64,000 nt of DNA from Candidatus Woesearchaeota archaeon (GCA_038874135.1 JAVZCZ010000001.1:768001-832000); one strand, 5' to 3'. Shown: positions 2 to 16,854, counted from the first letter of the stretch. Notes: generated from the sequence alone by a model not told the origin. Numbers and translations: made by a program.

Positions 2-1870
2 AATTATTTCACTATAAATCCTATAAGTGAGGGAGTTCATACTTGGAGTGTTAACTGCACTGATTCAGATTGGAATACTTACATGCCGCCAGCCTTTACT
101 CTTTATATTGACCGCACCCCGCCAACAATTGTTATAGAATCTCCTGTCAACCTGTCTGTTTTTTCAATTCCAGATGTAACCTTCAACTTTACTGCGATTG
201 ACATGTTATCAGATAATATTTCGTGCAAAATAACTATAAATGGTAATTTGAACAGAACTATAACAGTACAGAATGATACTCCTTACAATTTCACGATTGT
301 AAAAATGTCAGATAATATCTATTATTGGAATGTGTCCTGCTCAGATTTAGCCGGAAATGCAAATGCTAGCAACACCATGCAGTTTACTGTAAGCGCTATT
401 CCTTCAATAATTCCCATATCGCCTGCCAACTTAAGTTGGAGTGAAGTATCACAGATAACATTTTACTTTAATGCAACCGACAACGATGGGCTTTCTAATT
501 GCACTTTACTAATTAATGGTGTAGCAAATCAGACAAAATCTTCAGGTTTAATAAATGGTGGCATAAACAATATCACTTCTACTCTTACTGAAGGAGAATA
601 TGATTGGAGTATCGCTTGTACAGATTCGGGCATATTCTATAATCTCAACTTGTCCGCTCCTCAAAAGATTTTTGTTGATCTAAATTCCCCGCTGATTGTT
701 CTTTACGCCCCTCTCAGCGGTAGCATTACTGAAAATAATTCTCCAGTTCTAAATTTTACTGCTTCAGACACGATGTACCCAATTATGTATTGCAACATTA
801 CTCTTGACGGAAAATTGAAACAATCTTATATTGAATTATATAACAACACACCTTATGCAGAAGCTACCTATAATTTATCTGCAGGAACTCATTACTGGAA
901 TGTTAGCTGCTGGGACTATGTAAACCATACGGGCTTTAGCGAAACCTGGAACTTTACAGTTCCACTGCCAGACATCACAGTTTCAGCAATTGAATTCATT
1001 TATAATACCACAAACCCAGAAGAAGGCAAACAGCTGATGATAAATGCAACTGTAGAAAATTTAGGGAAGTCCAATGCAAACAATTTCTTAGTGCAATTCT
1101 TTGACGGAAATCCCGAAGATGGGGGAATTCAGATTGGAAACAATATAACAATGAGTTTACAGCCGCTATCTGCTTCATACGCAATTATGAATTGGACTGC
1201 CTCCTTGGGAACTCACAATATATTCGTGCTAGTAGATCCTCCAATAGCAACCAATGGAACGGTACAAGAAGAAAATGAGAGTAACAACATAGCTAATAAA
1301 ACAATACTCATACAAAGTTGGCATTTCATCTACGGTAACCTTAGCGGAGAATTAGGACTTAGCAGCCAGCTCTATTCGCTGTTATTCCTCTGGAATGTTA
1401 GCGACGCCAACAATAGTAATATATTTGCAGTTGACTCTGACAGCAATATTGATTGGGGAAGTCTAAAACCATTAGGATTGGATGTGAATAATCAAGCATC
1501 TCCCTACGACTTTTCAGTTCTAGACCAAAAACTAGGTATGTCAAATTATGAAGATTCAATAAACTCAACTTACACCGAGGGAGAATCTCCCAAAATGACA
1601 GAAACATTTACAATATACGGAAAGCAGATAGAAAATGTTCCGGTAGCATATTCAATTAACAGCTCCAATTTTAAAACAGGAATACTGTGGGACACTTCCG
1701 ATGGGAACACATACTTTAACGGAACTCAGGATGTAGTTTTTGTAACTAAAACCAATATGAACGCACAGGGCAGTTTTGATCAGACAGACTACGAAATGCG
1801 CATCCCATCTAACTTGAAAAATTATATTGGCTCAAATCCAACAGTAGCATTATACTTAGAGATAAGATGA
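2..1870 (+). CDS. Large secreted Ig-repeat surface protein (5'-truncated by window edge) with CARDB domain and C-terminal family-A subunit-like domain
   Basis: Frame is open from position 2 (NYFTINPISEGVHTWSVNCTD...). Repeats of C-x-L-x-I-NG...Y-x-W-x3-C-x-D-x2-GN. CARDB-like segment (LPDITV...VENLG...VDP...EENESNN). Many N-x-S/T sequons. Confidence 0.85.
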   Translation, partial: NYFTINPISEGVHTWSVNCTDSDWNTYMPPAFTLYIDRTPPTIVIESPVNLSVFSIPDVTFNFTAIDMLSDNISCKITINGNLNRTITVQNDTPYNFTIVKMSDNIYYWNVSCSDLAGNANASNTMQFTVSAIPSIIPISPANLSWSEVSQITFYFNATDNDGLSNCTLLINGVANQTKSSGLINGGINNITSTLTEGEYDWSIACTDSGIFYNLNLSAPQKIFVDLNSPLIVLYAPLSGSITENNSPVLNFTASDTMYPIMYCNITLDGKLKQSYIELYNNTPYAEATYNLSAGTHYWNVSCWDYVNHTGFSETWNFTVPLPDITVSAIEFIYNTTNPEEGKQLMINATVENLGKSNANNFLVQFFDGNPEDGGIQIGNNITMSLQPLSASYAIMNWTASLGTHNIFVLVDPPIATNGTVQEENESNNIANKTILIQSWHFIYGNLSGELGLSSQLYSLLFLWNVSDANNSNIFAVDSDSNIDWGSLKPLGLDVNNQASPYDFSVLDQKLGMSNYEDSINSTYTEGESPKMTETFTIYGKQIENVPVAYSINSSNFKTGILWDTSDGNTYFNGTQDVVFVTKTNMNAQGSFDQTDYEMRIPSNLKNYIGSNPTVALYLEIR

Positions 1871-15663: not shown

Positions 15664-16854
15664 ATGAGTATGAAGATATTAACAAGAGTTTTTGTAATCT
15701 CCCTGTTCCTTATTTCAGCTTCCATTCCCTGCCTTGCAAGTTTAGGAGTAAGCCCAGGAGCTCTGATTTTTCCAAACATGCTGAGAGGCGGTTTTGCACA
15801 GCGTCAGATACTCATAAGCACCCTCTCAGAGCCAATAAATGTTCAGCTAAATGCAGGAGGCGAAATTGACTCTTGGATTGAATTCTCCCGTCAAAACCTC
15901 ACAGTACTTCCAAACATTTCAACCGCAGTATCAATAGTTGTAAGGCCACCTGCAGACATTCCTAACGGCAACTATTCCGGGTTTGTCACGGTGTTTAGAA
16001 CTCCTATGGATAACTCTCAGAACATAACTGGGATAGGAAATGTTGTAGTTATGAGCGTGAGAGTTCCGATAACTGTTGAGGTTACTGACAGAGAATCTAA
16101 GAAGTGTAGGGCGTACTCATTTTCAATAGATAGTGTGGAGCAGGGCAGCCAGGCAAAGCTCAGAATGGTTGTGATAAATGATGGCAATGTTAAAATGTCT
16201 TCTCCGGTAAGAGTGGACATCTGGGATCAGCAGAGGACATCTATAGTTAAGTTTCAACAGTTTTCAACACCTAATGTTCTGCCAACTTTGGAACAGGCTA
16301 TAGATTTTTCTCTCTCTGTTGAGCAGCTTCCAACAGGTCAATACTGGGCAGAGATATCTGTGCCGGAGTGCGACGCTTATTCCATAGTGACTTTTGACAT
16401 CCTTGAAAAGGGGGCGCTCTTATCCAAAGGTTCGCTGCTGCAGATAATTAATGAGCCCTGGATCTCAGTAGGACAGACTGCAAAGATAGAAGCCATTTTC
16501 AAAAATGAAGGAGCCAGAAGCGTTCTGGCAAGGTTTAAGGGCACAGTGTCTTATCAAGGGCAGCTCGTGTCAGTTCTAGAATCTGACGAAGTTGAAGTTC
16601 CTGCTGGGGCAACAGAATCCTTAATTACCTATTTTAAACCTGCACTTCCCGGCTCTTACACTATTGAAGGAAGAGTATATTATGGAAAAAAGGTTACCTT
16701 TCCAGCATCTTCAATAATAAATGTGAAGGAGAGCCAGAGAATTCACTTAGATCTTATTACTCTGATTTATATAATGATACTGATTGCCAGCCTTGTTCTG
16801 CTGTTCCTCATATTTAGAAGGCATAGGAAGAGGATGCGAAAGAGACTTTTCTGA
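15664..16854 (+). CDS. Membrane-anchored three-Ig-domain protein (DUF916/chaperone-like)
   Basis: Signal peptide, then LGVSPG start and VRPPADIPNGNYSG. C-terminal TM helix with basic tail RRHRKRMRKR. Confidence 0.65.
   Translation: MSMKILTRVFVISLFLISASIPCLASLGVSPGALIFPNMLRGGFAQRQILISTLSEPINVQLNAGGEIDSWIEFSRQNLTVLPNISTAVSIVVRPPADIPNGNYSGFVTVFRTPMDNSQNITGIGNVVVMSVRVPITVEVTDRESKKCRAYSFSIDSVEQGSQAKLRMVVINDGNVKMSSPVRVDIWDQQRTSIVKFQQFSTPNVLPTLEQAIDFSLSVEQLPTGQYWAEISVPECDAYSIVTFDILEKGALLSKGSLLQIINEPWISVGQTAKIEAIFKNEGARSVLARFKGTVSYQGQLVSVLESDEVEVPAGATESLITYFKPALPGSYTIEGRVYYGKKVTFPASSIINVKESQRIHLDLITLIYIMILIASLVLLFLIFRRHRKRMRKRLF

Follow-up and report, generated by a model that had tools for sequence, protein, structure and literature searches.

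For the Elr pilus of Enterococcus faecalis it has been shown that WxL proteins form the polymer and that a DUF916/DUF3324 protein is the membrane chaperone (10.64898/2026.10.17.759780), and the Elr/WxL pilus system has been reported as restricted to Bacillota (10.64898/2026.10.17.759780; PMC10599100). Ca. Mycosynbacter amalyticus, a small symbiont without outer membrane belonging to the Candidate Phyla Radiation (CPR), has the Pam pilus, whose Sec-exported subunits are joined by strand exchange, with transmembrane-anchored chaperones, an acceptor-only tip and a donor-only membrane base; this system is found only in CPR bacteria (PMC13278184). In archaea, the threads (Saci_0406) consist of subunits processed by signal peptidase I and linked head-to-tail via an N-terminal strand, with a proposed donor-only cap (PMC9715654). 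It is still mostly unexplained by what means Woesearchaeota-type DPANN archaea locate their hosts and stay attached to them; in Nanobdellota YN1, attachment structures have been imaged, their proteins not being identified (PMC11420986). Here we describe a gene set of a Candidatus Woesearchaeota archaeon, located in and around a stretch of 64,000 nucleotides (hereafter the window; GCA_038874135.1, JAVZCZ010000001.1:768001-832000). The genome is a single contig (C1) of 909,956 bp and is 99% complete. Genes are named by their first coordinate in the window (Table 1), and 'S' stands for the free secreted proteins 10672 and 11713 together with the domain homologous to them. We consider it probable, with some reserve, that the S module is a strand-swap pilus, not of type IV, with a so far unmatched fold and giant tip adhesins.

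A domain common to small secreted proteins and giants

The preliminary description of this DNA had reported open reading frames (ORFs) and a motif series for 10672, 11713 and two giant proteins, G1 and G2. All are present at the positions given, and the series is common to S and the giants overall, with the exception of the GE-x-YA motif, which the giants do not retain. Proteins 10672 and 11713 are paralogues (36% identity, E 7e-37), and the genome encodes two further S paralogues, at 866111 and 867624. Since pairwise BLAST of 11713 against the two giants was not significant (E 0.07 and 0.23), a profile comparison was needed. When 119 S proteins were compared with 110 giant C-termini by hhalign, the profiles matched with a probability of 98.8% (E 1e-16) over S residues 56-230. 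A hidden Markov model (HMM) of 351 S sequences gave 39.0 and 15.7 bits on the C-termini of G1 and G2, as against at most 4.6 bits on shuffled sequences, -0.9 on reversed ones and 5.1 on other parts of the same giants, and the reciprocal giant HMM recovered all four S paralogues of the genome (E 1e-9 to 6e-5). These profile comparisons confirm the proposal that the free S proteins and the C-terminal ~190 amino acids (aa) of both giants are one common domain. Three further claims were borne out: a CARDB domain (Pfam) immediately precedes the S domain in both giants (at 8815-9111 in G2), the N-terminal arm of ~40 aa (S residues 21-62) is missing from 110/110 aligned giants, and S and the giants have no transmembrane segment besides the signal peptide. 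The same holds for 12413/13378.

The giant-type domain falls into 652 families at 50% identity and ends at most ~15 residues from the C-terminus in 149 of the 150 matches listed; open frames that carry it reach ~7,500 codons. G1 as a whole gene begins 5170 nucleotides upstream of the window and encodes 2346 aa.

The free S proteins start with a hydrophobic signal and a small-residue cleavage site, followed by a conserved P-x-G-P, and have no later hydrophobic segment. A class III signal peptide with a retained hydrophobic helix is not present in S, and searches for pilin families were empty. Pfam, NCBIfam and PDB sequence searches with the S proteins and those of a second module, B (see below), gave no match, and no description of the S family was found in literature searches. 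The AlphaFold2 model of the S monomer is confident (predicted local distance difference test, pLDDT, 86.6), residues 21-63 being without regular secondary structure. Searches with the S fold gave at best E 0.49 (Foldseek, PDB), Z 3.1 (VIA, wide) and E 0.19 (BFVD), and an Atlas search with the same model returned clusters of its own family alone (template modelling, TM, score 0.84-0.86). The predicted S fold is so far without match among solved, viral and named Atlas structures, which is an absence of match and not a proof of novelty. The view that the system is undescribed holds to the extent that neither sequence nor fold searches linked S to an already characterised family.

A predicted head-to-tail joint

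Three copies of 11713 residues 21-230 were modelled together, from S sequences only. The model reached a score of 0.49, compared with 0.04 for the best of 3 controls; among solved one-chain pairs, 20 of 30 attain the mark for this score, as does 1 of 23 solved single chains, but both figures are only roughly valid for a job with its own alignment and three copies. At least 91% of the contacts agree among runs and partner pLDDT is at least 78. The modelled interface is asymmetric, one copy contributing residues 60-91 and 219-229 and the other its arm and a pocket, and because of this asymmetry the joint could be repeated without end. In the list of touching residues, arm residues 33-61 contact 60-91 and 219-229 of the neighbour. 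With the 11713 hairpin taken as residues 74-89 and the pocket as 64-68/164-167/199-210, it is residues 63-68, 132-138, 162-170 and 200-210 that take in the neighbour's hairpin in the model. A single S paralogue is predicted, therefore, to pack head-to-tail, with its arm on the neighbour and the neighbour's hairpin in its own pocket. Contacts of the model rank high in a coupling analysis of 351 sequences (P25-V227, rank 2; A66-I85, rank 5; Q78-G168, rank 10; S44-Q222, rank 19). The preliminary description had anticipated N-terminal strand insertion between subunits: the modelled arm does lie on the next subunit, and its insertion as a beta-strand stays at the level of inference.

Polarity of the proposed tip, shaft and base

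A gene upstream of the window encodes a fusion of an S domain with a HerA-type ATPase. The protein consists, in this order, of a basic N-terminus, a transmembrane segment, a short arm, the S domain, two CarboxypepD_reg domains, more ectodomain, another transmembrane segment and a HerA/DUF87 ATPase, which matches DUF87/HerA_C above the Pfam cut-off and has intact Walker A and B motifs as read in the translation. Dozens of genomes have an orthologue of it, a single one in each. By hhalign, homology extends across the free, tip and base types (98.8, 99.4 and 97.5%). The S domain of 30/30 aligned base proteins opens with a half arm (consensus aG-x-I-x-x-l-x-i before an invariant Trp), and the arm core scores positive in 32/33. 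Because half of the arm and the pocket are retained, the fusion is our candidate for the base of the S fibre.

The model was built from S alone, so the giant and base families serve as a check of its polarity: a tip is expected to keep the hairpin and to lose arm and pocket, and a base to do the opposite. Position 66, which lies under Ile85 of the hairpin, is Ala or Gly in 351/351 S and 30/30 base proteins; among the 110 giants it is small in none and bulky in 90. Pocket residues W64, Y/F200 and Q208 are retained in the base (1.00, 0.97 and 0.90) and altered in the giants, which retain L77 and W88 of the hairpin (0.91 and 0.66). In the hairpin region of the base there is another insert, which is longer and has an invariant Cys at its end; the base keeps a hydrophobic residue at 85, and the loss of the hairpin is therefore partial. 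Counted with the caution that sequences within each family are kin and thus not independent events, the family patterns fit the modelled polarity. The base insert was also considered as a second, self-complementing arm, which was rejected (3/33 vs 3.1 expected).

This divergence bears on whether S proteins could instead be closed monomers or rings, in which arm and hairpin fold back in-chain, the trimer is a domain-swap artefact and S acts as a carbohydrate- or surface-binding module. Coevolution is unable to separate intra- from inter-chain contacts and the AlphaFold2 monomer is confident alone, both of which would suit such closure. However, the arm is unpaired in that monomer, and since closure predicts that hairpin and pocket change jointly, giants that keep the hairpin but fill the pocket, and base proteins that keep the pocket but alter the hairpin, make closed forms very unlikely in our view.

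In the strand-swap pilus that we favour, the 21410 protein would hold Sec-exported S subunits, which would join the chain below the arm-less giant via arm donation and hairpin insertion. Each S would lay its ~40-residue arm along the subunit further out and receive the 74-89 hairpin of the latter in its pocket, floored by Ala/Gly66. Giving its hairpin, and able to accept an arm but not to donate one, the giant would for that reason cap the distal tip, from which it would project a 2000-7500-aa stalk of Ig (immunoglobulin) domains and repeats. Growth would end when the last shaft subunit receives the short arm of the base-type protein; in this genome that protein spans the membrane and carries a cytoplasmic HerA/FtsK-type ATPase. 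We infer the long filament, the order of assembly, the chaperone role and host adhesion; the likely use would be adhesion to a host or surface. For the earlier proposal of a polymerising, giant-tipped surface structure speak the shared domain, the armed subunits as opposed to arm-less giants, the modelled self-association, the synteny across the lineage and the absence of a match to a characterised family.

Several observations weigh against this pilus. To date no microscopy has shown a filament, and no expression data turned up for the S system. The model shows contacting residues rather than hydrogen-bonded strand insertion; the coupled pairs A66-I85, P25-V227 and S44-Q222 stem from sequences that overlap the model input, and coupled pairs could also be satisfied within one chain or a closed ring. 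In this genome the base arm is only a few residues from an N-terminal transmembrane segment that may or may not be cleaved, and the base-type protein of minimal lineages showed no C-terminal transmembrane segment. Lastly, the arm is intact in some large proteins too: other genomes encode a second class, of 600-2360 aa, whose terminal S domain keeps the arm, whole or in part. Under the pilus model these proteins would serve as in-line adhesins.

The polarity data apply also to a short tether or sorting system, the S domain being a docking tag and one or a few S proteins linking the giant to a 21410/base complex. Almost without exception the domain closes the chain of the very large proteins that carry it, which are secreted, as sorting domains do, and several S paralogue subfamilies per genome would fit an ordered short adaptor chain. 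Yet one S paralogue self-associates in the model and keeps both donor and acceptor faces, so that open-ended growth is permitted, and some operons hold one S gene per giant. We regard a tether as doubtful.

Distribution and gene content

Matches to the S domain occur in 73 of 251 genomes sampled from the phylum (1-12 per genome); the giant domain was found in 57 of the 251, and the 12413 family in 47. S is found in 55 of the 57 giant-positive genomes (51 with strong matches only) compared with 73/251 overall, counts of co-occurrence in which kin are not independent. The synteny check suggested earlier shows a gene set conserved lineage-wide: one or more giants with a terminal arm-less S domain, S proteins, a 21410-type protein and a half-arm base-type protein. 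In the minimal S operon the order is giant, S, 21410-like, base-like. The 21410 protein is most likely a membrane-bound chaperone or anchor of the S fibre; CWB2-like repeats suspected in it had no Pfam support.

Presence is patchy within genera (e.g. 7/10, 2/4), which is unusual for a main wall protein. S proteins are secreted, sequon-rich, multi-paralogue and without an anchor of their own, and on these grounds could form a two-dimensional coat, either a sheath or a lattice of the S-layer kind, with giants and base plugged in by their S domain. But the modelled interface is a single polar head-to-tail joint, and the existence of members that only donate or only accept implies a linear axis; we give such a coat hardly any credence.

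Genomes that carry only one of the two modules (93-100% complete) separate the partners of S. In five genomes with module B and no S, 15664 is present in 5/5 and 21410 in 0/5; in five with S and no module B, the figures are 0/5 and 5/5. By this split, the span 2-16854, previously taken as one system, holds two modules found independently, and two S partners, 21410 and the candidate base in the upstream fusion, fall outside it. On the same counts 15664 was rejected as an anchor of the S system. The HerA-type ATPase was likewise rejected as a core part: no orthologue of it was found in the five S-only genomes, for which reason we treat it as accessory, and it is present in one B-only genome.

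VirB4 and phage pI drive filament assembly. Compared with these and other pumping ATPases of the FtsK/HerA type (HerA, VirB4, TrwB, Zot/pI), the ATPase of the fusion differs in forming the cytoplasmic end of a membrane protein that carries an S domain on the outside. A bolder form of the S pilus would be motorised, combining a new fold and a double joint of arm and hairpin with a HerA-type ATPase that extends, retracts or releases the fibre for host capture. Such a machine, in the larger Woesearchaeota-type lineages with an ATPase-fused base and with tips of 2000-7500 aa, seems unlikely.

Beside the fusion gene, its tandem neighbour (genome 754401-756782; L002:401-2782) encodes a membrane protein with a cytoplasmic HerA-type ATPase domain and without S domain, and the two genes (754401-756782 and 757312-760854) have a 1164-bp stretch in common with 99.8% identity. 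Between the fusion and G1 (L002:6851-8833) are two conserved cytoplasmic proteins of 274 and 385 aa, likely coiled-coil; the family of the latter recurs next to the ATPase in related loci. In both candidate bases, the proteins of 16898-18556 and genome 757312-760854, an N-terminal hydrophobic segment is directly followed by a G-[YM]-A-V motif, which stands immediately ahead of the putative donor strand and is possibly a processing site.

Comparison with known systems

The S module shares with chaperone-usher pathway (CUP) pili (FimA/FimH/PapH) the distinction of tip, shaft and base by N-terminal extension. As proposed, it would follow a logic of tip, shaft and base that is also that of Elr, Pam and the archaeal threads. 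The proposed donor-strand analogy is sound in this logic of armed shaft and arm-less tip, and is not supported at the level of fold, where the S model had no listed match of note to FimA-type or other solved structures (best Z 3.1), an absence that does not exclude a pilin fold. CUP pili differ further in that neither usher nor PapD families were detected when 18 proteins of the locus were scanned with Pfam, and in that the predicted S joint adds a swapped beta-hairpin. Unlike Elr, there is no WxL (PF13731) match in the window proteins or in 119 S members, and the S module is without 15664 and without a detected Ig-pilin fold. No LPxTG protein was noticed in the locus translations, the genome not having been searched for sortase. 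Pam pilins donate an internal linker strand and have Ig-like C-domains and a tiny tip subunit (PMC13278184), whereas the S arm and the free strand of 12413 are N-terminal, S is single-domain and the tips are giants of 2000-7500 aa. With thread Saci_0406 (PMC9715654), AbpA (PMC9245690), CanA (PMC12518558) and tafi (PMC11821415, PMC12337348), S has in common that it is archaeal and not of type IV. For none of the four was a match to S found in sequence or fold (CanA only at E 3.0, TM score 0.11); they belong to other archaeal groups, and no report of giant tip adhesins or an ATPase-fused base was found for them. Because usher, WxL domain and class III signal are lacking and no fold match was found, we do not assign the S module to CUP pili, Elr, Pam, type IV pili or threads, and regard it as a variant of strand-exchange surface fibres.

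S would add to the strand-exchange repertoire a pilin fold without known relatives. Present in about three in ten of the sampled phylum genomes, the gene set would offer a concrete way to display anchor-less proteins of up to ~7,500 residues. The subunits are small and expressible (210 aa), with predictions at residue level.

Module B

Proteins 12413, 13378 and 15664 would form a second, independent kit for an Ig-fold fibre with strand exchange. The AlphaFold2 model of 12413 (pLDDT 93) has an unpaired N-terminal segment and two ordinary Ig-like sandwiches; the top Foldseek rows include CfaE/CfaB, FimH and CsuE at E ~1e-5 and query TM scores of at most 0.42, among unrelated beta-sandwiches. The C-terminus of 13378 matches 12413 (E 1e-57), and 13378-type proteins are without the free strand. 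15664 resembles WxLIP clusters at lead level (feature similarity 0.86-0.88), with no Pfam match. The analogy drawn earlier with WxL/DUF916 clusters fits this module and not S: Elr has a donor-strand small subunit, a large tip adhesin ending in the same domain, a two-domain membrane chaperone and a donor-only base, an arrangement that module B mirrors closely. The 16898 protein is, on weak grounds, a possible base. Module B would extend membrane-chaperone pili of the WxL/Pam kind to archaea.

Table 1. Coordinates of the features discussed (window positions unless stated otherwise)
Feature	Position	Strand	Description
G1, 3' part	2..1870	+	Candidate tip adhesin; the whole gene reads signal peptide, Ig-like repeats, CARDB and arm-less S domain at the C-terminus
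G1 arm-less S domain	1319..1870	+	Position 66 (pocket) is Phe; S HMM 39 bits
G2, 2612 aa	1867..9705	+	Candidate tip adhesin with signal peptide, repeats of ~50 aa, Ig-like repeats, CARDB and arm-less S domain
G2 arm-less S domain	9136..9705	+	Position 66 (pocket) is Tyr
Cytoplasmic protein, 164 aa	9874..10368	+	Small DUF5752-like domain; in most cases flanked by giant and S genes
S subunit 1, 256 aa	10672..11442	+	Candidate shaft subunit with Sec-type signal, N-terminal arm and S domain
S subunit 2, 230 aa	11713..12405	+	Arm residues 21-63 (11773-11901); candidate shaft subunit
Module B small subunit, 305 aa	12413..13330	+	Candidate donor-strand pilin; unpaired N-terminal strand (~33-56) and two Ig-like domains
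Module B large protein, 752 aa	13378..15636	+	~50-aa repeats, Ig domain, B two-domain module from 14872; candidate tip adhesin
Candidate membrane chaperone	15664..16854	+	Ig-like ectodomain, C-terminal transmembrane segment, basic tail; WxLIP (DUF916/DUF3324)-like at lead level
Membrane protein	16898..18556	-	N-terminus resembles 12413 strand; beside module B in one S-less genome
Membrane protein, 844 aa	18553..21087	-	Ig/Fn3-like ectodomain, coiled coil, transmembrane segment, DUF5752-like tail; found next to module B in two genomes lacking S
Membrane protein, 578 aa, highly conserved	21410..23146	-	Signal, ectodomain, C-terminal transmembrane segment, basic tail; accompanies S in minimal operons
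S-domain/HerA fusion, 1180 aa	Genome 757312-760854 (L002:3312-6854)		10.7 kb upstream of the window; S profile E 1e-10
Arm-bearing large S proteins	L081:1010-8089, L082:4230-9647, L083:10392-12200, L085:4316-6205		Loci of other genomes

Further observations on the locus and genome

G2 (3187-3842) and the 752-aa module B protein (13768-14423) contain an identical 656-bp cassette of ~50-aa repeats. An assembly artefact was considered and rejected (collapsed contig at ~1.75x depth); the cassette could make it possible for the two modules to exchange heads. Long near-exact coding repeats, at window 3130-3850 and 13740-14460, in the upstream ATPase genes and at genome 744060-745500, are strongly biased on their coding strand: ~94-97% of third codon positions are G or T, against 49% for the genome on average. 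The bias looks like a build-up of C-to-T and A-to-G changes in the course of gene conversion. Two more giants are encoded at genome 670125-677057 (2310 aa) and 342628-351837 (3069 aa), with short repeats common to both, and the former has a weak match to the second domain of module B (E 1e-4).

Relatives that give names to the window proteins are mostly metagenome-assembled genomes of Woesearchaeota/Nanoarchaeota. The only sequencing runs containing the locus are hot-spring metagenomes of one study, possibly the source of the assembly, with no RNA run listed, which is no evidence on expression either way, and 3813-13797 is covered by one independently assembled contig, which may stem from the source sample. 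A sigma-70 scan was at chance level, the sigma-70 model being unsuited to archaea. The DUF5752-like domain also occurs in the tails of the 18553 protein and the ATPases and in cluster proteins of many genomes. The second pair of S genes (genome 865629-868337) lies ~87 kb from the first, and each of its S genes is preceded by a small gene resembling, by eye, a helix-turn-helix regulator. Elsewhere, genome 492243-495995 is an ORF of 1250 aa, whose N-terminus, judged by eye, we take to be Cas12a-like.

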